Virus record (IMG/VR): IMGVR_UViG_2703719365_000009
Direction: 5' to 3' (one strand)
Length of the DNA stretch: 42,461 nt
Origin: a virus
Taxonomy: Duplodnaviria; Heunggongvirae; Uroviricota; Caudoviricetes
The notes under the pieces were generated by a model. That model did not search any database. It saw nothing but the letters and a program-made list of their open reading frames with translations, and was not told the origin of the DNA. Numbering within the stretch: the stretch's first letter is position 1; each line of letters opens with the position of its first letter. This document shows, one piece after another, positions 2,738 through 12,459 of the stretch. The translations under genes and the position numbers were made by a program.

Positions 2738-4828
2738 ATGTGGGTAACAGCAAAAGAATGTGTTGGTCTTCCTGATTTACCAATGATGGAACATAACATT
2801 CGCCATCGACTCACAAAAGCAGCTGCGGGAAATGCAGCCATGTTACGCAAACGTAAGGGGACAAAAGCAATCGAATTTAATATCGATTGTTTGCCTTCTG
2901 GCGCGCAACAAGTATTGCGTGAACGTTATGCCCTTCAACTGATGACGCAAAAAGCTGATGAATCACCGGCTCCGGTGGTGACAAAGGCCAGACGCTCGCC
3001 TGCCGTGGTTGATGCTGTGGAGGCATATCGCGGATCACCACAACTGATGGTTGAACGCCTTAATGCCCTGACTGAAAACCAGCGCCAGGTGGCTGATGCA
3101 CGAATCGCGATCGTCAGCGAAGTGATGAAAGTCGCGCAACAACCCGGTTTCAGCTGTGCGAAAGCTATCCGGTTTATCGTTGACAACCTGGCACGTTCGC
3201 AGCTGGACGAGCGCATTGTGGCAATGGTTGAGACGGCGAACGCCAAAAAGGGAAACAGCCGTGCGTTGAGTGAAATCACGCTGAAACGCTGGATTGCAGC
3301 CTTTAACAAGGCGCAGAACGCCGCCGAACGCCTGCTTTTACTGGCACCGGGTAAGCGCCAGGAAATAAAAGCCGAAGATATTAACTGGCTGCCCGAATTT
3401 CTGGCGCAGTATCGCCAGTCAAACGGCCGACCAATGACCGAGGCTTACGAGGATTTTGTCGCTGAATGGCAGCACCGGCACGCTGATGAGCCTTATATGC
3501 TCGATATCATGCCGTCTTATGACACCATTCGCCGCGCAATGAAGAAACTGCCGGAAGTGGTGAAACAAAAAGGCCGGGTGACCGGCAGTGAATACCGCCA
3601 GCTTGAGGGATTCACGCGCCGCGACTGGTCCAGAATGCCGGTGAATTATGTCTGGATTGGTGACGGTCACGGCATGAAGCTGAAATGCGCACACCCGGTT
3701 CACGGTCGGCCATTTGCACCGGAAGTGACCTTTGTTATCGACGGTGGCACGCGCTTTGTGGTGGGCTGGAGCCTTGACCTGGCTGAAAATGTTTTCGCCG
3801 TAGCCGGTGCCATACAGCACGGCATTCGCCATCACGGCAAACCGTTTCTGTATTACTCGGATAACGGCTCCGGGGAAACCGCCGACATCCTGGATAAGGA
3901 GGTTGTGGGGATACTGCCGCGACTGGGGATTAATCACCCGACCGGGATTGCCGGTAATCCGCAGGGACGAGGCATTATCGAACGGCTTAACCGCACATTA
4001 CCGATGCGCATAGCCCGTAAATACCGCACCTATTTCGGGAAAGGTGCAGATCGCGAGACGTTACGCAAAACCAACCGCGATTTACGCTCGGCATTTACTG
4101 CCCTGCAACAGGGCAAACGGCTGAACGTCCGGCAGCAGTCAGCGATGCGTGATTTACCGTCCTGGTCTGAACTGATTGATGCCATTCGTGACGGTGTTGA
4201 GTGGTACAACAACCGGCCGCACGATGAATTACCGGTGAAGCCGAACGGCAAGCATTACAGCCCGGCGGAGTTCAGAAAAAAACGCCTGGCGGAAGAGGAC
4301 ACGGAAATTGAATGGCTGTCCGATGTTGAGCTGCGGGATATGTTCCGGCCGATGGTGGAACGCCCTGTAAGACGCTGTGAAATACGCTGGCTGAATAATA
4401 TTTACTACGCGCCCGAGCTGCGTGACGAGCATGGTCGTAAGGTGCTTATCAGCTATGACATTCATGATGCCGAACGAATTACCGTACGTCGCCTGGATGG
4501 CAGCGTGATTTGCGAGGCGGTATGGGACGGTAATAAACGCGAAGCCTTCCCGGTCAGCGCGGAATACTACAAACAGCAGCAACGCCTTAAAGGCATGCGT
4601 AAACGCGCAGAGGAAAAAATCCGTGATGCCGAGGATGAGGTTGTCAACGTGCTGGAGCACAAGCCGCAGGAGCCCTGGCTGGAAAACATATACCGCCCTG
4701 TGGGTAATACGGTGGCCGTTCAGCAACCTGCCGTTGATGATGAGCCTGATGAAGAATACGAGCGTAATTTCCAGCGGGGATTGCAGTTGCTCGAAGCGAA
4801 ATTAAAAGAAAATGACCCGCTGGCCTGA
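2738..4828 (+). CDS. A: Transposase A (MuA-like DDE transposase)
   Basis: 696 aa; N-terminus MWVTAKECVGLPDLP resembles MuA N-terminus; position after ner. Confidence 0.93.
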   Translation: MWVTAKECVGLPDLPMMEHNIRHRLTKAAAGNAAMLRKRKGTKAIEFNIDCLPSGAQQVLRERYALQLMTQKADESPAPVVTKARRSPAVVDAVEAYRGSPQLMVERLNALTENQRQVADARIAIVSEVMKVAQQPGFSCAKAIRFIVDNLARSQLDERIVAMVETANAKKGNSRALSEITLKRWIAAFNKAQNAAERLLLLAPGKRQEIKAEDINWLPEFLAQYRQSNGRPMTEAYEDFVAEWQHRHADEPYMLDIMPSYDTIRRAMKKLPEVVKQKGRVTGSEYRQLEGFTRRDWSRMPVNYVWIGDGHGMKLKCAHPVHGRPFAPEVTFVIDGGTRFVVGWSLDLAENVFAVAGAIQHGIRHHGKPFLYYSDNGSGETADILDKEVVGILPRLGINHPTGIAGNPQGRGIIERLNRTLPMRIARKYRTYFGKGADRETLRKTNRDLRSAFTALQQGKRLNVRQQSAMRDLPSWSELIDAIRDGVEWYNNRPHDELPVKPNGKHYSPAEFRKKRLAEEDTEIEWLSDVELRDMFRPMVERPVRRCEIRWLNNIYYAPELRDEHGRKVLISYDIHDAERITVRRLDGSVICEAVWDGNKREAFPVSAEYYKQQQRLKGMRKRAEEKIRDAEDEVVNVLEHKPQEPWLENIYRPVGNTVAVQQPAVDDEPDEEYERNFQRGLQLLEAKLKENDPLA

Positions 4829-4898
4829 AATAAAAAATAACCCGAGCGGCGACTCAGGTTATTTGATTAAACAAGGTATCAAATGAGAGGTTAATAAT

Positions 4899-5831
4899 AT
4901 GACTGATATTAACGATGTAATCAAGACCATTGATGAACTTATTGATGGCGGCGTACTGACGCAGTATGCCATCGCCAGAGAGGCGGGAATTTCCGACGGC
5001 ACATTATCGGCTTTCCGTAAGGGAAAATATAAAGGCGATAACGCTGCTGTGGCTGCTTCCCTGCGTTCCTGGTATGAGAACTGGAATAAACAAAGCGCAC
5101 TGCCGGAACCGCCGCAGTTTGTGGAAACGCAGACAGTCCAGGAGCTGCGCGCACTGTTTCAGGCGGTTCGTCTGATGGGCTGTATTAACGTTATTGTGGG
5201 CGTACCGGGTGTGGGTAAAACGGCCACTGCCCGTAATTACTGCCAGGAGCAACCAAACACCTGGATGATCACCCTGTCACCCGCGCACTCCAGCGTCACG
5301 GAGTGTCTGCTGGAGCTGGCCGATGCGCTGGGGATTGATTACACCCGCGCGAACAAAGGGGCATTATCCCGCGCCATCCGCCGTCGCCTGATGGGAACGC
5401 GTGGACTGGTGATTGTGGATGAGGCGGATCATCTGGGTATTGACGGTCTGGAGCAACTCCGGGCAATTCAGGACGCCACGGGGATCGGGATGGTGCTTAT
5501 TGGTAACCCGCGCGGATTGTTTAAAGGTGGACGCCGCGCCTTTGATGATTTATCGCGCCTGTTCAGCCGTCTTGCCCGTACAAAACAACTTCGCAAGGCC
5601 AAAAAGGCGGATGTGCTGGCCATTGCCAGGGCATGGGGTATCAGTGGTGAGGCCGAGCTGGCCGTCATGCAGGCTATCGCTGAAAAGCCGGGAGCGTTAC
5701 GCGTTCTGACACATACGCTTAACCAGGCGTGGCTCACCGCCAGCGGTGAAGGCGCGGCGCTGACAGAAAAACATATTAATGCGGCCTTTAAAGAGGTTTA
5801 TACCAACCCTGAATTACTCTCACAGGTGTGA
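4899..5831 (+). CDS. B: Transposition ATPase B (MuB-like AAA+ target DNA activator)
   Basis: 310 aa; Walker A GVPGVGKT; strong overall resemblance to MuB including PEPPQFVETQTV and VIVDEADHLG segments. Confidence 0.93.
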   Translation: MTDINDVIKTIDELIDGGVLTQYAIAREAGISDGTLSAFRKGKYKGDNAAVAASLRSWYENWNKQSALPEPPQFVETQTVQELRALFQAVRLMGCINVIVGVPGVGKTATARNYCQEQPNTWMITLSPAHSSVTECLLELADALGIDYTRANKGALSRAIRRRLMGTRGLVIVDEADHLGIDGLEQLRAIQDATGIGMVLIGNPRGLFKGGRRAFDDLSRLFSRLARTKQLRKAKKADVLAIARAWGISGEAELAVMQAIAEKPGALRVLTHTLNQAWLTASGEGAALTEKHINAAFKEVYTNPELLSQV

Positions 5832-6055
5832 TTATGGCGGTATTTAATATTCCTGATATTTACGGACGCTTTTACCTGGTTAATTTCGATAACGTGAAGG
5901 TGATTTCACTGGCCGAAAATAAAGAATGTGGCGATTTACTTTTTGAATTTAATGACCGCACACGAATGGTGATATCTGCCGGACTTGATCGCGAAGGTGC
6001 GACAGACGTTTACAGCGGAATATGCCGTTCTGTTGGTGCGAAACAAGTCAGCTAA
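5828..6055 (+). CDS. Small early protein at the Mu kil position (Kil-like by position and size)
   Basis: 75 aa; start overlaps B stop (ATGA coupling); Mu kil is about 74 aa immediately after B. Confidence 0.5.
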   Translation: MIMAVFNIPDIYGRFYLVNFDNVKVISLAENKECGDLLFEFNDRTRMVISAGLDREGATDVYSGICRSVGAKQVS

Positions 6056-6067
6056 ATGAGGTGTTAT

Positions 6068-6322
6068 ATGAATATGCAATCCTGCGGTAACAAAATGAAT
6101 TTATTCGACTCCCTGAACAGCGCGCGCCGTCTGACCGAACTTGCCGGTGCGGTACTGGAACGCAGTAAGCGCTACCCACAACGTTTTGCACTGAAAACCA
6201 CGCCGCCGGTAGGCAACGTGCAGGGAACCGGTGAAATTGAAATCACCATACAGACCAACGGCCTGCGCCGCCGTGTGAAGGCCACCCGCATCAGCGGCTG
6301 CACGGTTTACTGGGAGGTGTGA
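6068..6322 (+). CDS. Hypothetical early protein
   Basis: ORF with RBS GAGG before ATG 6068 (alternative ATG at 6056). Confidence 0.5.
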   Translation: MNMQSCGNKMNLFDSLNSARRLTELAGAVLERSKRYPQRFALKTTPPVGNVQGTGEIEITIQTNGLRRRVKATRISGCTVYWEV

Positions 6323-6323
6323 G

Positions 6324-6605
6324 GTGAAAAAAAATCTCATTGCATGGGCGTGGTCGAGTGGTCTTATTGAGTTTGGTTACGTCCTGCCGGAAGGTGCATT
6401 GCCGATAGTTGCCGGAAAGCCTGCCACGGTACGGCATGTGATTGAGGTTATGGCGCGTCATGGACGTGATGAACAGGAGCAGTTACTGGTTCCGGGGATA
6501 CCGGAAGCGGTGACGGAGGAAGAAGCCTTTAATGCCATGATTCGGTTCTGCCGTGAGGTCAGACGCCGGGTCAGTTATCCAAACAGAACGAGGACCAGAG
6601 GATGA
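6324..6605 (+). CDS. Hypothetical early protein
   Basis: 93 aa; GTG start with RBS GGAGGTG; tightly packed in early operon. Confidence 0.5.
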   Translation: MKKNLIAWAWSSGLIEFGYVLPEGALPIVAGKPATVRHVIEVMARHGRDEQEQLLVPGIPEAVTEEEAFNAMIRFCREVRRRVSYPNRTRTRG

Positions 6606-6874
6606 GTAAAGTCGTACGCATTATTTTCGAATACAAGGAGCACGTTATCCATAAAAACGCTGATGGAACAGTGCGCATGGGGGTAAGTCTGGACATACGT
6701 TCAACCGGGATAAAGCAGAAAGGTGATGGACCCGCCATGATTTTTGGGGTGGTTATGCTCGCGGAAAGCAGAGACTTTGCTGAACTTGTGGCAATGAAAG
6801 CCAGTGCGCTCATGAAAGATATGAGCATGCGTTCCGGGGTTATTAAAGGTAATGAATTTAATCAGCAGGGGTAA
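6602..6874 (+). CDS. Hypothetical early protein, paralog A of tandem pair
   Basis: 90 aa; N-terminus MSKVVRIIFEYKEHV similar to the next gene MSKVRVIFEFKHVSH; start overlaps upstream stop. Confidence 0.6.
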   Translation: MSKVVRIIFEYKEHVIHKNADGTVRMGVSLDIRSTGIKQKGDGPAMIFGVVMLAESRDFAELVAMKASALMKDMSMRSGVIKGNEFNQQG

Positions 6875-6878
6875 TTCC

Positions 6879-7172
6879 ATGAGCAAAGTACGCGTTATTT
6901 TTGAATTTAAGCATGTTTCGCATGACGAAAAACCGGCAGGCAATGACTGTGTTGAAGTGCATGAAAAGATTGGTGTGGATGTAAAAACAGAACGTGATAC
7001 GAATAACAGGCCGACGTCACTCTGTGACGTTTATGCAAGTATTCTCCAGTATCACAGCCCTGAAATTATTCAGTTTCTCTCAGCGGAATTTCAGGCATCT
7101 GTACAGGCTTTTGGGGCGGATGCCATCATTAAACGCCACCGCGTGCATAAAGCATCAGGCACACTGCAATAA
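6879..7172 (+). CDS. Hypothetical early protein, paralog B of tandem pair
   Basis: 97 aa from ATG 6879 with RBS AGGGG; paralogous N-terminus to 6602-6874. Confidence 0.6.
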   Translation: MSKVRVIFEFKHVSHDEKPAGNDCVEVHEKIGVDVKTERDTNNRPTSLCDVYASILQYHSPEIIQFLSAEFQASVQAFGADAIIKRHRVHKASGTLQ

Positions 7173-7183
7173 GGAAAAACAAA

Positions 7184-7714
7184 ATGGCAAAACGCGTTAC
7201 AAAATTAAAGGCCGCAGCAGAGGCGGCACCGCAGACCCGTGAAGAGGTCAGCCGCGATATCCGCACCCTGGGCGATATTCAGCGAGAGGCGCTGCGCCTG
7301 GAAACAGCGATGAATGATGAAGTGGCAGAAATCACCGCCCGTTATACGCCGCAGATTGAAAGCCTTAAAAAAGAAATCAAAGTGCTTTTTAAGGGGATTC
7401 AGGACTGGTGCAAAACCAACCGTGATGAGCTGACGAACGGCGGCAAAACCAAAACTGCCAATCTGACCACCGGAACGGTGTCATGGCGACTGGGGAATCC
7501 ATCATGCAGCGTCAGTCGTGATGTGGAAGGTGTGATTGAAATGCTGCGCCGTATGGGCCTTGAGCGTTTTATCCGCACGAAAGAGGAAGTGAACAAGGAA
7601 GCGGTCCTGGCGGAGCCGGATGCAGTGAAAGGCATTGCCGGTATTAAGGTGAATAAAGGCGCTGAAAGTTTTTATGTCGAGCCTTTTGAACAGGACGCCG
7701 GACTGAATAAATAA
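7184..7714 (+). CDS. gam: Gam-like host-nuclease inhibitor (DNA end-binding, Ku-like)
   Basis: 176 aa; segments RDELTNGGKTKTANL, SWRLG, FIRTKEEVNKEA match Mu Gam as recalled. Confidence 0.88.
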   Translation: MAKRVTKLKAAAEAAPQTREEVSRDIRTLGDIQREALRLETAMNDEVAEITARYTPQIESLKKEIKVLFKGIQDWCKTNRDELTNGGKTKTANLTTGTVSWRLGNPSCSVSRDVEGVIEMLRRMGLERFIRTKEEVNKEAVLAEPDAVKGIAGIKVNKGAESFYVEPFEQDAGLNK

Positions 7715-7811
7715 CACCGCATTAAATCTTTAAATATCACATCGTTTTAAGTATGGCGCTCGCGTCAGGGGACTGCCTGCGCCTGTAAACTGAAAATAAG
7801 GAACAGGATAT

Positions 7812-8354
7812 ATGGCATATTTTTATTTCAAATTAGACCGTGTGCAGACAAATAAATATTTCACCAAATATCAACAGACTGTTTTACCGCTACGCAACAG
7901 TATTCTTCGGGCATTACTGAAAAATACAGGCGCTGCCGGATTGCGCTTAAAGCCGTTTGCCATGGACGTAATCAGTGAGTTTTATTTTTCTGGTGCTCTG
8001 CCTGCGGGCTGGCGTAAGCGCGATGATGTGGCTTTTATCGGGGACGGACCGTGCTTTATTGCCAGACCTGATGAGTCATGCCCTGAAGGACCGGCGATTG
8101 CCGCAATGATTGAAGCCGCTGAACGCGAGTTAAGAAAGCGTCCTGATTTCCTTGTCTGGCTCTGTGAAAAGCTGGGGGTAATGAGAATCCCCTCCATGTT
8201 TAACATGGACTCCTGGTGGACCCCGTCGCTCTCCCGTGATGCCCTGTGCGTGGTGTTTAAAGTAGGCGCTTATGGCAGGGAAATAAAAGGGGGTATTCCT
8301 GAAGAATGCCAGGAGATTAAACATTCTGAATATGTGGCGCTGACGGAGGAATAA
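7812..8354 (+). CDS. Hypothetical early protein
   Basis: 180 aa ORF with RBS AAGGAACAGG. Confidence 0.55.
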   Translation: MAYFYFKLDRVQTNKYFTKYQQTVLPLRNSILRALLKNTGAAGLRLKPFAMDVISEFYFSGALPAGWRKRDDVAFIGDGPCFIARPDESCPEGPAIAAMIEAAERELRKRPDFLVWLCEKLGVMRIPSMFNMDSWWTPSLSRDALCVVFKVGAYGREIKGGIPEECQEIKHSEYVALTEE

Positions 8355-8357
8355 TTC

Positions 8358-8891
8358 ATGATTGATGCAAAAGTGCTTGAAGGGGTTAAAAACTGGCTGA
8401 GTATTTACGGGCGTCTGACCTGCGGCATTCTGGCTGAAAAAATGAATATGCCGCCATCCTCGATGGTTTATTTTCTGCGTGATGCGGTCGATGCCGGGGT
8501 GCTGACGGAATGTAACGGTTTTTATGATATTCCGCGTCCCCGCCCGGTGCAGCCGATTCGTCGCAAATGCAGCCAGGAAGGTGCGGCTGATGATGTTCAG
8601 TGGTGCAGCTTCAGAAAATCCCTGCCGTGGATTGAGGGGCATGATATTCCGTCAATGGCGTGGGAATTTGCTCAGGGCGTTCTGACCTGTGAAACCGTTT
8701 ATGTGGTGGCTGAAGTTGATGAGCAGGCCATGAAAGAAGGCGTGCCCCAGTTTGTGATGGCGTATATCGACATACGCCTGGGTGTCATTATCTGCGGTTT
8801 AAGCGGCTGGAATATCACCTCGCGCGTTCTGCGTTACCTGATTGTTGACCGGACGGCCGCGCCTGCCGGGATATCTGCGGAGGTGGCGTAA
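8358..8891 (+). CDS. Hypothetical early protein
   Basis: 177 aa ORF 3 nt after upstream stop. Confidence 0.55.
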   Translation: MIDAKVLEGVKNWLSIYGRLTCGILAEKMNMPPSSMVYFLRDAVDAGVLTECNGFYDIPRPRPVQPIRRKCSQEGAADDVQWCSFRKSLPWIEGHDIPSMAWEFAQGVLTCETVYVVAEVDEQAMKEGVPQFVMAYIDIRLGVIICGLSGWNITSRVLRYLIVDRTAAPAGISAEVA

Positions 8892-9406
8892 TGTTCTTTA
8901 AAACATCAAACCCTTCCGCGCTGGCCGCGTGGCAAAAATATCAGCAGGACTGCCAGAAAGTTAAGGATGAGGCAAAACGCCTTGAGGCCGTGCTGAATGT
9001 TGCGTGCCGGTCGGTATTTGTATCCGGTATCAGTGGCTTTTGTTTTAAAGGGCTGCGCTTTATGGATGACAAATATCCTTTTCATCGCGACTTATGGCGA
9101 AAACCGACTGCGTCGAATGGCTGGAGCTGCACACCGCGCACATCACGTATTCCCAAAGCCCTGCGCGTTGCCTCTGACGAACTTAACAGTCTGTGGCGTG
9201 AATATTCGCCCGTCACGTATGCCAGAACCGATGCACTGTTGTTCTGGCTGGGTATTGATTTCTCGGCAATCATGTTTGGCCCTGTGAAGTGGTTCTGCGT
9301 TGACGATGTGATTTACCTTGAGTGCGGCGTAAAACCCGCAAATCAGAAAATGACCGAAATGCTGTCTGATGAGTTTTATGCTGCTGAAAAGCGAGTCAGG
9401 GGGTGA
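8891..9406 (+). CDS. Hypothetical early protein
   Basis: 171 aa; start overlaps upstream stop. Confidence 0.55.
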   Translation: MFFKTSNPSALAAWQKYQQDCQKVKDEAKRLEAVLNVACRSVFVSGISGFCFKGLRFMDDKYPFHRDLWRKPTASNGWSCTPRTSRIPKALRVASDELNSLWREYSPVTYARTDALLFWLGIDFSAIMFGPVKWFCVDDVIYLECGVKPANQKMTEMLSDEFYAAEKRVRG

Positions 9407-9409
9407 TGC

Positions 9410-9961
9410 ATGATGAAATTACAACCCATGGGACTAAAAGGTCGCGCCCCCGCTCATGTCCGTCCGTGGACACCTGAAGAAGATGCGCTGCTGATTGCGC
9501 TTTATTCATCCACCCCGGTTAAGGATATTGCTGCCAGAATAAAAAGAACTGTCTGGGCTGTATATAACCGGACTGGTGTATTGCGCAGTTCATACCCGGA
9601 GTTACTGAAATATAAACACCCAAGATTTACACCTGATGAAGATAAGTTTATTCGAAAAAATGCCAGAACAATGACCTGCCAGCAAATGGGAGAATATCTC
9701 GGACGTAATAAAGATTCTGTCAGATGTCGGGCAGGAATGATTGGTGCTGGATTAACAAAGTGCGGAGAGTTACGCCCCGGCACGCGCATATCTGATGATG
9801 ATGTACGTCTTATACGTGCGCTGCGTGATTCCGATTACCCACGCCGTCTGTCATTCCGGGAAATTGGCGAAAAGTTTGGAATATCTGAACATTCTGCTCA
9901 CGCAGTTTATTACCGTCGCCGGACTGCCGAGGACGCTGTATTACGGGAGTTAACGCCATGA
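9410..9961 (+). CDS. Early protein with three internal Myb/SANT-like helix-turn-helix repeats (putative DNA-binding)
   Basis: 183 aa; repeats WTPEEDALLIALY (about res 20), FTPDEDKFIRKN (about res 73), ISDDDVRLIRAL (about res 127). Confidence 0.55.
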   Translation: MMKLQPMGLKGRAPAHVRPWTPEEDALLIALYSSTPVKDIAARIKRTVWAVYNRTGVLRSSYPELLKYKHPRFTPDEDKFIRKNARTMTCQQMGEYLGRNKDSVRCRAGMIGAGLTKCGELRPGTRISDDDVRLIRALRDSDYPRRLSFREIGEKFGISEHSAHAVYYRRRTAEDAVLRELTP

Positions 9962-10287
9962 TAACGACCTTATTTGTTGAATCAGATGAACCTCTTGTGT
10001 GTGCCGCCGGAATGCCGCTCTGTGGCGGAACGCTGACCGGTGTTTATTTCGGGGATTTACGCGGTTATCCCTGGCATTCACTGAATGATGCTTTCCCACC
10101 TGATATGGAGGCTGTCGTGCTGATTGTTCAGTATGGTCACCGTCAGGAGCTGCGCATCGGCCATATGGGGTATGAAGGCTTTTTTGTTGATGAAGAAACC
10201 GGAGCCTGCCTTGAAGATGAAGACGGACAGGTGACGCACTGGTGTCATATTTCGGCTTTACCGGAATTACGGGAGGTGAATGCGTGA
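9958..10287 (+). CDS. Hypothetical early protein
   Basis: 109 aa; ATGA overlap with upstream gene. Confidence 0.5.
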   Translation: MITTLFVESDEPLVCAAGMPLCGGTLTGVYFGDLRGYPWHSLNDAFPPDMEAVVLIVQYGHRQELRIGHMGYEGFFVDEETGACLEDEDGQVTHWCHISALPELREVNA

Positions 10288-10634
10288 GAAGTTATATTGA
10301 TAATGAAAAGCTGGAGACAATAAGCGACTGTCTTAGCTTGCTGGCAAAAATCAAAGAAACTATTGAAGAGATTAAATTTCAGCTTGAATACGAACCCTGT
10401 GGCGATGATACATGGCGTAACTCTGCCAGAAAAGCACTGGCTGTCTTTCAGAAACAACGCCGGACTGTTGAGTACCGACTTGCTGTATTGCGCCAGGAGG
10501 AAAAGGAAAGAAATATAAGACGTCATGAACTCGTTAATGATTTTCTTGTTCGTGAATTAAAGGAGCGTGTGCCGGAGTCGGTATTTTTTGAGTGTGAGGC
10601 TGTTGCCCGTAGCAAAGCACTGGAAACTGATTAA
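10284..10634 (+). CDS. Hypothetical early protein (charged, probably coiled-coil)
   Basis: GTG 10284 overlapping upstream stop with RBS GGGAGGTG (alternative ATG 10242 would overlap 46 nt). Confidence 0.45.
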   Translation: MRSYIDNEKLETISDCLSLLAKIKETIEEIKFQLEYEPCGDDTWRNSARKALAVFQKQRRTVEYRLAVLRQEEKERNIRRHELVNDFLVRELKERVPESVFFECEAVARSKALETD

Positions 10635-10646
10635 ACAGGCAGGTGA

Positions 10647-10982
10647 ATGATGAGTATTGAATTAAGATCGTCTTATGAATATCGTAAAATTCTCATCGCC
10701 GGAGGCATGAAACCGGAAGATGCAGAAAAAATCGTTTCTTTTATGGATAAAGAATGTGACAAACGGGATATGCCAGAAATTATTATGGATGACATGATTC
10801 TGCATTCAGCCGTAGCGTTAAGCCCGTTATGGATTGTGCATTCTCTTGCTGAAATTGCCAAAGGCACCGATAAACAGGCAGCTGTTGCTGCCCTTCAGAC
10901 GCTTAATGAAATGCGTATATCTCCACGCCCGACATTAATACATATGATTCTGTCCAGCATGGAGGATAAAGCAAATGAATAG
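10647..10982 (+). CDS. Hypothetical early protein
   Basis: 111 aa; RBS AGGTGA before ATG. Confidence 0.5.
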   Translation: MMSIELRSSYEYRKILIAGGMKPEDAEKIVSFMDKECDKRDMPEIIMDDMILHSAVALSPLWIVHSLAEIAKGTDKQAAVAALQTLNEMRISPRPTLIHMILSSMEDKANE

Positions 10983-11172
10983 TCTACCCGCTGGATGGGC
11001 GAGGCCACTAATGGCCAGGAAGCATCATTTTTTTAAAACAGGCGAAAATATCAGTATATGTGGACGGTGGTTATATCTGGCTCATAATCGCGAGCCGGAT
11101 ACATTTGAAAGCCCTGATGACTGTGCCGAATGCCGCAGAAGAGTGAATAAGGAGAAAGATAATGGACAATAG
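10975..11172 (+). CDS. Small protein with possible zinc-ribbon (Cys pairs)
   Basis: 65 aa; C-x-large gap-CAEC arrangement; overlaps neighbours. Confidence 0.4.
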   Translation: MNSLPAGWARPLMARKHHFFKTGENISICGRWLYLAHNREPDTFESPDDCAECRRRVNKEKDNGQ

Positions 11173-11458
11173 TTCTCTGTTGTTCTGGTGCTTATATATC
11201 ACATCCTTTTTCGGTGCATTTGTTATTACCCGGTGGTTATGTCGAAAAATCATCTGCTTTTTTGATAAAAGATATCCGGTTGAACGGGCGGCTGATGCAC
11301 TCATTCAGCAGGCCATTGTGTTATATAGCGGTGAATTTTTCTGCCGAATAACAACCAGAGATGGCTGGCACATAATGATTATTCCGCCAACACACCATGT
11401 CCGGTGGGATGAGGCAGAAAAGGCTTTCCATGTCCGTAAAAAGGTAAATACGGTATGA
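11162..11458 (+). CDS. Small membrane protein (one predicted TM helix)
   Basis: 98 aa; hydrophobic segment LLFWCLYITSFFGAFVIT. Confidence 0.45.
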   Translation: MDNSSLLFWCLYITSFFGAFVITRWLCRKIICFFDKRYPVERAADALIQQAIVLYSGEFFCRITTRDGWHIMIIPPTHHVRWDEAEKAFHVRKKVNTV

Positions 11459-11964
11459 GAGGAAAACTGATATCCGCCATTCATGTGGCAAAGCGCGAGC
11501 TTGCCCTTGATGATGAGGCTTATACATTCGCGCTGCTGGCCGCCACCGGCAAAACCAGCTGCCGGGATATGTCACCGGATGAGTTATCCCGCGTGCTGGA
11601 TGTTTTCAAAAAACGCGGTTTTAAAGTGCGTCAGAACCCGGTTAACCGGGCCTTAAAACCGGGTACGGTGACCGCTAAAATTCGCGCCATCTGGAAGGTG
11701 ATGCACCGGCAGGGCTTTATCTCTGATGGTGCGGAAACCGCCCTTAACCGCTGGGTGAAATCGCAGACGGCCGCGCAAAACGGCGGCGAAGGTGTGGCAA
11801 ACTGGCAGTGGCTGGAGCAACACCCCGCCCTGGCCTCAGATGTGCTGGAGCGTCTCAAGCGATGGCACCGCCGCAAAATGCTGGCCGCGATGGGAATGCC
11901 CGAACGCACGCTGATGGGGTATGACGCCGTTTGCAGGCAGTATGAAAAATCACTTCCCCGTTAA
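11455..11964 (+). CDS. GemA-like protein (Mu gp16 family)
   Basis: 169 aa; N-terminal KRELALDDEAYTFALLAATGKTSCRDMSPDELSRVLDVFKKRGFKV resembles Mu gp16/GemA family as recalled. Confidence 0.6.
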   Translation: MRGKLISAIHVAKRELALDDEAYTFALLAATGKTSCRDMSPDELSRVLDVFKKRGFKVRQNPVNRALKPGTVTAKIRAIWKVMHRQGFISDGAETALNRWVKSQTAAQNGGEGVANWQWLEQHPALASDVLERLKRWHRRKMLAAMGMPERTLMGYDAVCRQYEKSLPR

Positions 11965-11970
11965 CCCCAA

Positions 11971-11998
11971 ATCCCGCCATAACGCGGGATTTTTATTT
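11971..11998 (+). terminator. Rho-independent terminator ending the early operon
   Basis: ATCCCGC-CATAAC-GCGGGAT hairpin followed by TTTTATTT. Confidence 0.7.
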
Positions 11999-12033: not shown

Positions 12034-12459
12034 ATGGCAGAAACTCAGATGAGCATGTTTGGTGGTGACAGTGAGCAACTGCACGCCCTTATCGACCGCC
12101 TTGATGACATCCCTGATGATGTTCTCAAAAAGAACTGGCCGCGGACCCTGTCAGAACTGGTTGAAGTCACCGGCGCAGAACTTCAGCGTCAGGGGATTGA
12201 GCCGGTACTGGCCGGCAAACTGGCACGCAAGGTGGCTGCGGCTCAGGCAGCCTATATGGGCGGACGGGGTTATTACCTGCCGGTCGGGGAATCTCTCTTT
12301 GCCGAGCTGCGAAACAATGAGATATTTTCGCGCTGGGACCGGGGCGAGAAAATTGAATCCCTTCGCCGCCATTACCGGATGTCAGAAACCCAGATTTATA
12401 CCGTCATACGTGAACAGCGCCGTCTGCATCTGGCAAGAACACAACCGCCACTTTTCTGA
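12034..12459 (+). CDS. Mor/C-family transcription activator (C-like by position, immediately upstream of lys)
   Basis: 141 aa; C-terminal YLPVGESL...IYTVIREQRRL resembles Mor/C family HTH region as recalled; RBS GGAGG. Confidence 0.75.
   Translation: MAETQMSMFGGDSEQLHALIDRLDDIPDDVLKKNWPRTLSELVEVTGAELQRQGIEPVLAGKLARKVAAAQAAYMGGRGYYLPVGESLFAELRNNEIFSRWDRGEKIESLRRHYRMSETQIYTVIREQRRLHLARTQPPLF

Follow-up and report, generated by a model that had tools for sequence, protein, structure and literature searches.

In phage Mu (AF083977, Mu_5 to Mu_54), the semi-essential early (SE/SEE) region lies between B and gemA-mor, on the same strand as these genes, and consists of small, tightly packed genes. 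We analysed a stretch of 42,461 nucleotides of viral DNA (the window), in which 15 plus-strand ORFs (o1 to o15) occupy positions 5828-11458, from B (4899-5831, plus strand; Phage-MuB_C and AAA_22 matches) to gemA (11455-11964, plus strand). The genes ner-A-B precede the block on its own strand, and gemA is followed by mor (12034-12459). Kil, Gam, Mu_11, Mu_12 and Mu_9 of the Mu region all have homologues in the block, whereas Mu_6, Mu_7, Mu_8, Mu_13, Mu_14 and Mu_54 are absent and an extra gene, o1, is located between B and kil. The original prediction of an early accessory region of a Mu-like phage, with about 15 short ORFs between B and gemA, is borne out by these flanks and by the kil and gam homologues inside, and we consider it highly probable that the block represents the SE/SEE region in a transposable prophage of the Mu type. 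Since ten of the 15 genes have no Mu counterpart, the equation of the two regions rests on position and flanking genes.

Gam had been thought the only recognisable gene of the block, but profile searches, BLASTP and hhalign also detected homologues of Kil, Mu_11, Mu_12 and Mu_9. o6 (7184-7714) is Gam, a Ku-like DNA-end-binding protein, as predicted: it matched Pfam PF07352 (Phage_Mu_Gam) over profile positions 1-149 of 149 (E=1e-41; 142.8 bits, cut-off 28.3) and is 57% identical to Mu Gam over 175 aa. The Kil homologue o2 (6056-6322; 84-88 aa, RefSeq start 6068) matched phrog_2679 'Kil' (E=8e-46) and aligned with Mu Kil at an hhalign probability of 79-100%; at the BLAST level the similarity is weak (33% over 39 aa, E=1e-4). 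o8 (8358-8891) is 67% identical to Mu_11 (gp11) and matched Pfam Gp11_C (E=8e-40), and o9 (8891-9406), a homologue of Mu_12 (gp12), has no solved structural relatives. The expected triple-HTH-repeat protein is o10 (9410-9961; 183 aa), whose alignment shows a threefold pattern of SANT/Myb-like HTH repeats, compared with two repeats in Mu_9 (E8). Residues 66-167 of o10 are homologous to Mu_9 (hhalign probability 97%, E=6e-11), and phrog_323 'transcriptional regulator' and the RefSeq name support the SANT/Myb-like assignment, for which Pfam scores stayed under the cut-offs (Myb_DNA-binding 20.7 bits versus 24.4; HTH_AsnC-type 19.1 versus 27). The SANT protein follows the gp12 homologue here but precedes gam in Mu. 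A role as DNA-binding regulators is probable for o8 and o10. Roles are known for Kil and Gam only; a further three genes have Mu counterparts without a known role and the other ten have no counterpart in Mu. The block is thus not made up throughout of well-characterised Mu proteins, in line with the expectation that most of its genes would lack a known function.

These ten genes (o1, o3, o4, o5, o7 and o11-o15) fall into PHROG families of unknown function and gave no Pfam, NCBIfam or PADLOC match. A PDB sequence search with o3, o7, o11 and o13 returned no match, and no functional work on the block's non-Mu genes came up in literature searches. o1 (5828-6055; 73-75 aa, from GTG at 5828 or ATG at 5834) is a RefSeq CDS with a match to phrog_3375 (E=9e-47) and dN/dS of 0.30. 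o3 (6324-6605; 93 aa; phrog_1518, E=4e-43) belongs to a broad family, with 546 cluster representatives at E<=1e-3 in an exhaustive search and no fused domains among them; word-indexed searches with o3 and o7 found close relatives only. The label 'host nuclease inhibitor' attached to o3 is a propagated database name without support, and o3 had no Pfam match, PF07352 included, no BLASTP match to Mu Gam and no PDB profile match. An apparent paralogy of o1 and o3 was rejected: the hhalign probability of 98.8% came from a chimeric ORF in one related locus (L032), where an in-frame deletion joins o1 to o3 with loss of kil, and fell to 17% once this ORF was removed. o4 (6602-6874; 90 aa; phrog_4107, E=1e-61; dN/dS 0.35) and o5 (6879-7172 from the RefSeq start, longest ORF from 6852; 97 aa; phrog_2230, E=2e-40) had been taken for a paralogous pair. 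They do resemble each other at the N-terminus, with 70% identity limited to the first 17 residues (BLASTP E=0.02), but paralogy as such is weakly indicated (hhalign probability 43%).

o7 (7812-8354; 180 aa) is a phage-specific alpha+beta protein without solved structural relatives, and its predicted model folds with a pLDDT of 87.5. In related loci it is present, absent or swapped for a 24%-identical allele, and the family includes tandem duplicates. It weakly resembles DUF5420 (PF17457), a family of the same length (~184 aa) and without known function. Profile positions 86-181 can be aligned in register with o7 relatives, of which one carries the NCBI name 'DUF5420 family protein', but the scores remain under the Pfam cut-off (15 bits versus 26) and o7 itself gave no match at E<=0.1.

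Towards the distal end, o11 (9958-10287; 109 aa; phrog_6925, E=4e-51; dN/dS 0.12) is very acidic (18 D+E, 4 K+R) and stays 81-85% identical even where B of the same locus falls to 57-79% identity. Its C-terminal ...VTHW...LPE motif is one that we took to be DUF551-like, but no Pfam match appeared even at E<=10 and the assignment was dropped. o12 (10284-10634 from the RefSeq start; 116 aa) has a longest ORF from 10242, of which residues 15-130 are covered by phrog_6158. o13 (10650-10982; 110 aa) matched phrog_1988 (E=6e-45; dN/dS 0.14). The small Cys-pair protein and the small membrane protein that had been predicted were both identified. The former is o14 (10975-11172; 65 aa; phrog_2358, E=5e-34), with a CxxC pair (C51, C54) plus C29 in the family alignment; its match spans only positions 4-67 of the 146-position profile. 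The latter is o15 (11162-11458; 98 aa; phrog_17269, E=4e-34), with a single N-terminal hydrophobic segment as membrane anchor (Kyte-Doolittle 1.82 over residues 5-23). Several equations with the missing Mu genes, namely o4 or o5 with Mu_7, o14 with the Cys-rich Mu_13 or Mu_6, o13 or o12 with Mu_14 and o7 with Mu_8, were each rejected at hhalign probabilities below 1%.

The block was found in 233 of 5,426 complete E. coli genomes, and 190 complete E. coli genome records carry it at 95-99% identity. The closest known prophages are Mu-like ones in Shiga-toxin E. coli, namely the Sp18 type of O157:H7 Sakai and the Stx-phage inserts LC727881 and LC727895. Nucleotide identity across the block is 94.6% and 91%, the higher value being that of LC727881, an 'inserted Bacteriophage Mu-like phage'. 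The prophage analysed here is Sp18-related and inserted in gene J of a VT1-Sakai-like Stx1 phage. It thus resembles the LC727881 and LC727895 inserts, which also lie inside Stx phages, although the insertion site in LC727881 is not the same.

The region had been predicted to be variable, and a presence/absence matrix of the related loci supports this for close relatives: even between near-identical prophages, cassettes have been exchanged, deleted or duplicated. The block is a mosaic of exchangeable cassettes and not a co-inherited unit. The maximal set, o11 through o15, is present together here and in only ~6 of 55 related loci. We considered whether one sub-block nevertheless forms a functional unit that encodes an undescribed system for counter-defence or superinfection exclusion, or one of the toxin type. 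The best candidate is o13-o14-o15 (small, Cys-pair and membrane-anchored proteins): in most related loci the three genes come and go as a group, and a Mu_13/Mu_14-like cassette is the alternative occupant of their position; moreover, the o13/o14, o14/o15 and o15/gemA junctions all overlap, and the two alleles of o15 (overall identity only 53%) have the anchor in common and diverge in the soluble part. A second candidate is o11-o12, as o11 is strongly acidic, like DNA-mimic proteins. However, two loci (L035 and L044) have o15 but neither o13 nor o14, o13 was matched at 69% coverage without o14 and o15 in ~10 loci and o11 occurs without o12, so that co-inheritance is loose. Enzymatic or toxin domains were not detected, Pfam and NCBIfam gave no match, and none of the 15 proteins matched PADLOC-DB 2.0 at E<=0.01 (best score: o13 against PDC-S72, E=0.035, 11 bits). 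We regard such a unit as unlikely. The suggestion that the block hides an undescribed system found no support: there was no PADLOC match and no obligatory co-occurrence beyond small cassettes, and every gene is already in a PHROG family. We favour the reading of the block as an SE/SEE region with exchangeable accessory genes.

With respect to coding status, 97% of the block is coding, on one strand, and the same 15 CDS are annotated by RefSeq in an E. coli prophage that is 98.5% identical. All 15 genes matched a PHROG profile at E<=1e-33 and nearly full length (in o14, part of the profile only), Shine-Dalgarno-like sequences precede most starts, and pooled pairwise dN/dS, from homologues in 55 related loci, was 0.08-0.45 for every ORF, so that these are real genes. 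That many of the ORFs are open by chance, in prophage DNA that is non-coding or decaying, would fit their short length, some GTG starts, several starts that differ between longest ORF and RefSeq and the lack of Pfam matches for 11 of 15. The selection and profile evidence already refutes this reading; coding on a single strand and the o7 model also speak against it, and we attach next to no probability to it. With RefSeq-type starts, seven of the 16 junctions overlap, eight are gaps of 1-15 nt and one, gam/o7, is a gap of 97 nt. Overlapping stop-start junctions are thus fewer than the 'nearly all' first claimed, although 15 of 16 lie within 15 nt.

This only long gap (7715-7811) contains a near-invariant 29-nt hairpin (7755-7783, plus strand) with an outer stem GGCGC/GCGCC, an inner stem CAG/CUG and a GGGA loop. 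Mu has the same ~97-nt gap after gam, with the same conserved hairpin inside. Copies occur in 87 viral contigs, as well as in Mu and in prophages of Erwinia and Pantoea. When genomes were scanned for the hairpin pattern, most matches were chance ones in GC-rich genomes; of the loci that in addition had a Mu early-gene homologue, those examined were the Erwinia and Pantoea ones (L148, L156 and L158). In the alignment 92.9-100% of cells are paired, with two compensatory pairs. Rfam covariance models gave no family at the gathering score anywhere in the window, the hairpin included, and literature searches found neither a description nor a functional study of it. There is no T-run 3' of the stem, where the sequence is TGTAAACTGAAAAT, and the terminator scan does not list the hairpin. 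A mini-ORF from an ATG inside the conserved intergenic core was rejected as coding, because a 1-nt indel sets Mu apart from the other sequences, so that conservation does not extend to the peptide. The conserved TTTTAATTAT was likewise rejected as a sigma-70 promoter, this being a -10-like hexamer without an acceptable -35 and unlisted by the promoter scan. In Mu-like phages of enterobacteria, the hairpin may act in cis as an undescribed RNA element of the early operon; such an element could signal processing or stability, or bind a protein, and thereby uncouple the distal half from the B-to-gam half. As the sequence is almost invariant, a protein-binding site at the DNA level is also possible.

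A Mu-type region of this kind is expected to be expressed as the distal part of the early (Pe) transcript and to be dispensable for plaque formation. We propose that the genes of the block are read as the distal part of a long early transcript, probably from the early promoter upstream of ner. Consensus scans gave a promoter-like candidate at 2372-2400 and, just after gemA, a terminator-like site (11969-11992). Expression as a single transcript is inferred from these scans, whose hits showed no enrichment compared with shuffled sequence. Translation would probably be coupled or re-initiated across the short junctions. A hairpin in the sense-strand RNA would set the B-to-gam half of the operon apart from the half that runs from o7 to gemA, and probably sets differential mRNA stability or processing. 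Judging by homology, Kil would block host cell division and kill the host, and Gam would bind double-strand DNA ends and shield them from host exonucleases. The remaining genes would act as independent accessory factors, in host takeover, replication support, exclusion or counter-defence, and not as one machine; anti-defence roles among them are suggested by analogy. One or more of the rapidly exchanged cassettes, with the o7 family, o11 and o13-o15 as candidates, may code for undescribed proteins of counter-defence or exclusion that have new folds. Taken jointly, an undescribed cis-acting RNA element at the hairpin and undescribed counter-defence or exclusion proteins in the cassettes are a tentative proposal that we hold as possible but doubtful.

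Taken together, the block is the ordinary, already catalogued semi-essential early region of a Mu-like prophage that is common in Shiga-toxin E. coli. Its layout is textbook Mu biology and its exact sequence is widespread in E. coli, and the finding therefore adds little alone. The hairpin is the only feature of the block for which a description was not found, and it could explain the partitioning of the 9-kb early operon. The value of the region is that of a catalogue, comprising ten conserved, selected and uncharacterised phage genes in exchangeable cassettes, which it would be reasonable to include in screens for host takeover or counter-defence.

The region between B and gemA of the Mu-like prophage (5828-11458, plus strand) contains 15 consecutive plus-strand ORFs in the ORF list, here o1 to o15 in order of position, and the RefSeq annotation of a 98.5% identical prophage has the identical set of 15 CDS. 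The RefSeq starts differ from the ORF list for o1 (5834), o2 (6068), o3, o5 (6879), o12 (10284) and o13 (10650). With these starts the coding share of the block is 97%; of the 16 junctions, seven overlap and eight leave 1-15 nt between the genes, while gam and o7 lie 97 nt apart. The original prediction had called nearly all junctions overlapping, which is too strong, but the genes are tightly packed. Against its homologues from 55 related viral contigs, each of the ORFs has a pooled Nei-Gojobori dN/dS of 0.08-0.45, and we conclude that all 15 are real genes under purifying selection.

The original description of the gene block was largely right. The triple-HTH-repeat protein is o10 (9410-9961), with three SANT/Myb-like HTH repeats, the small Cys-pair protein is o14 (10975-11172), with a C51-x2-C54 pair and C29 (replaced by Arg in one variant), and the small membrane protein is o15 (11162-11458), with a single N-terminal hydrophobic helix. 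The proposed paralogy of o4 and o5 stands less firmly: it rests on 70% identity over their first 17 residues (E=0.02) and on an hhalign probability of just 43%.

All 15 proteins matched PHROG families (E≤1e-33). BLASTP and profile-profile comparison with phage Mu (AF083977) identified o2 as a Kil homologue and o6 as Gam (57% identity to Mu; Pfam E=1e-41), and matched o8 to Mu_11 (67%; Pfam Gp11_C) and o9 (8891-9406) to Mu_12 (54%), with PF26885 carried by o9 relatives. Residues 66-167 of o10 matched Mu_9/E8 with 97% probability; in contrast to Mu_9/E8, o10 has one additional N-terminal repeat. The claim that only gam is recognisable was therefore incorrect once search tools were applied. For o1, o3, o4, o5, o7 and o11-o15, no Mu counterpart was found in AF083977 by either method, nor any Pfam, NCBIfam or PADLOC match, and those tested among these ten proteins had no sequence relatives in the PDB. 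Two predicted structure models showed secondary-structure elements in the same order and several low-Z hits in common. Because the profile comparison of these two proteins was not significant, a common fold is only a suggestion.

The database label of o3 is "host nuclease inhibitor". Its family is a broad one of ~90-residue proteins (546 cluster representatives at E≤1e-3), and the name "host nuclease inhibitor protein" has spread over at least 546 sequence clusters from genera including Escherichia, Salmonella and Chelatococcus. No similarity of this family to Gam or to a characterised inhibitor could be detected, longer members carry no fused domains and o3 has no relative with a solved structure. 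We regard the label as a propagated annotation and do not accept it.

Across 55 related loci the block is a set of exchangeable cassettes. The o7 slot (7812-8354) can be filled, empty, occupied by a 24%-identity allele or by a tandem duplicate (4862-5991 of locus L050). This is the fastest-changing position of the block, and in three loci (L012, L021 and L033) the 24%-identical allele lies in otherwise near-identical prophages. An alternative allele exists for o3, two alleles each (53-72% identity) for o5, o10 and o15, and some loci have a Mu_8-like gene between o1 and kil. The distal part consists of o13-o14-o15, of o11-o12, of o11 with Mu_13/Mu_14-like genes, or of o11-o15; the window has this last, maximal set, which was seen in about six of the 55 loci. 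In locus L032 (3997-4248), kil has been lost through an in-frame deletion that leaves a fusion of o1 (its first 49 residues) with o3 (its last 34), so at least one related prophage can do without kil. An apparent o1/o3 homology was a false signal produced by this chimera.

The cassettes are only loosely co-inherited, and the block has neither defence nor enzymatic domains, so we see no evidence for a concealed multi-gene system; the original prediction had named this region as one of the two likeliest places for an undescribed system. What holds of that interpretation is an early accessory region, mosaic and with mostly unknown functions. This is in keeping with the literature on Mu, in which the region between B and C is largely uncharacterised in function and, among Mu-type phages, shows lower conservation than the late genes do (PMC3820752; PMC4553209).

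The window opens with 1336 nt that share 99.9% identity with gene J (host specificity) of the Stx1 phage VT1-Sakai. At 1337 a match to the Stx2c phage LC727881 begins, with the left end annotated there for an inserted "Bacteriophage Mu-like phage". At this junction the Mu-like prophage interrupts gene J (tail tip) of a VT1-Sakai-like Stx1 phage, whose tail was presumably inactivated; the related insert in LC727881 occupies a different site. The left end is followed by a repressor-like gene (minus strand), ner, A (2738-4828), B (4899-5831; Phage-MuB_C and AAA), the block, GemA (11455-11964) and Mor (12034-12459). The block is 94.6% identical to LC727881 and is present in 233 of 5,426 complete E. 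coli genomes, with 190 records at 95-99% identity.

The block genes would form the distal part of an early transcript, running from a promoter-like site ahead of ner (2372-2400) to a strong terminator-like hairpin directly after gemA (11969-11992). The latter, a 9-bp stem followed by a T-run within the 69-nt gemA-mor gap, suggests that early transcription in this phage stops short of mor. As promoter and terminator scans were not enriched over shuffles, the scheme is a model only.

In Mu, Kil halts host cell division and is lethal to the host, and the Ku-like protein Gam binds DNA ends, which it shields from host exonucleases; by homology, o2 and o6 would act likewise. o10 looks like a DNA-binding protein, as does the N-terminus of o8, judged by eye. 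The other genes are best viewed as accessory factors independent of one another, for which their turnover makes anti-defence or exclusion roles plausible. o11 (9958-10287) is very acidic (18 D+E versus 4 K+R in 109 aa) and retains 81-85% identity even where, in distant Mu-like loci, the identity of B and gp11 falls to 57-79%. Its profile fits a DNA-mimic-type protein; no homology in support was found.

The 97-nt gap 3' of gam contains a conserved intergenic core, TTTTAA(G/T)TATGGCGC-TCGCGTCAGGGGACTGCCTGCGCCTG (7743-7786), with a near-invariant hairpin at 7755-7783. The core occurs in 87 viral contigs and is kept in Mu, whose record annotates only a ribosome-binding site in that gap. It was also found in loci with flanking proteins of just 30-60% identity and a gene other than gam upstream, and in Erwinia and Pantoea prophages with GemA only 34-39% identical. 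The inner stem and the five core outer pairs persist in every sequence. Compensatory changes affect two positions (C-G to U-A, G-C to A-U), and other variation is confined to the loop, which is mostly GNRA-type. In the Mu clade, a G-U wobble forms a pair on the sense strand only. We read the hairpin as an RNA element of the sense strand, with a role in processing, stability or protein binding, that would partition the operon. Since the sequence is nearly invariant, it may alternatively be a DNA site. The hairpin lacks a T-run and is not a terminator, and a short ORF starting in the core was rejected as a gene because its frame is not conserved. The putative RNA element had no match in Rfam, no second copy in the window and no description in the literature searched.

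Taken together, the block is an ordinary, already catalogued instance of a known region, in which the fold-orphan proteins o7 and o9 and the hairpin after gam are the only leads deserving follow-up.
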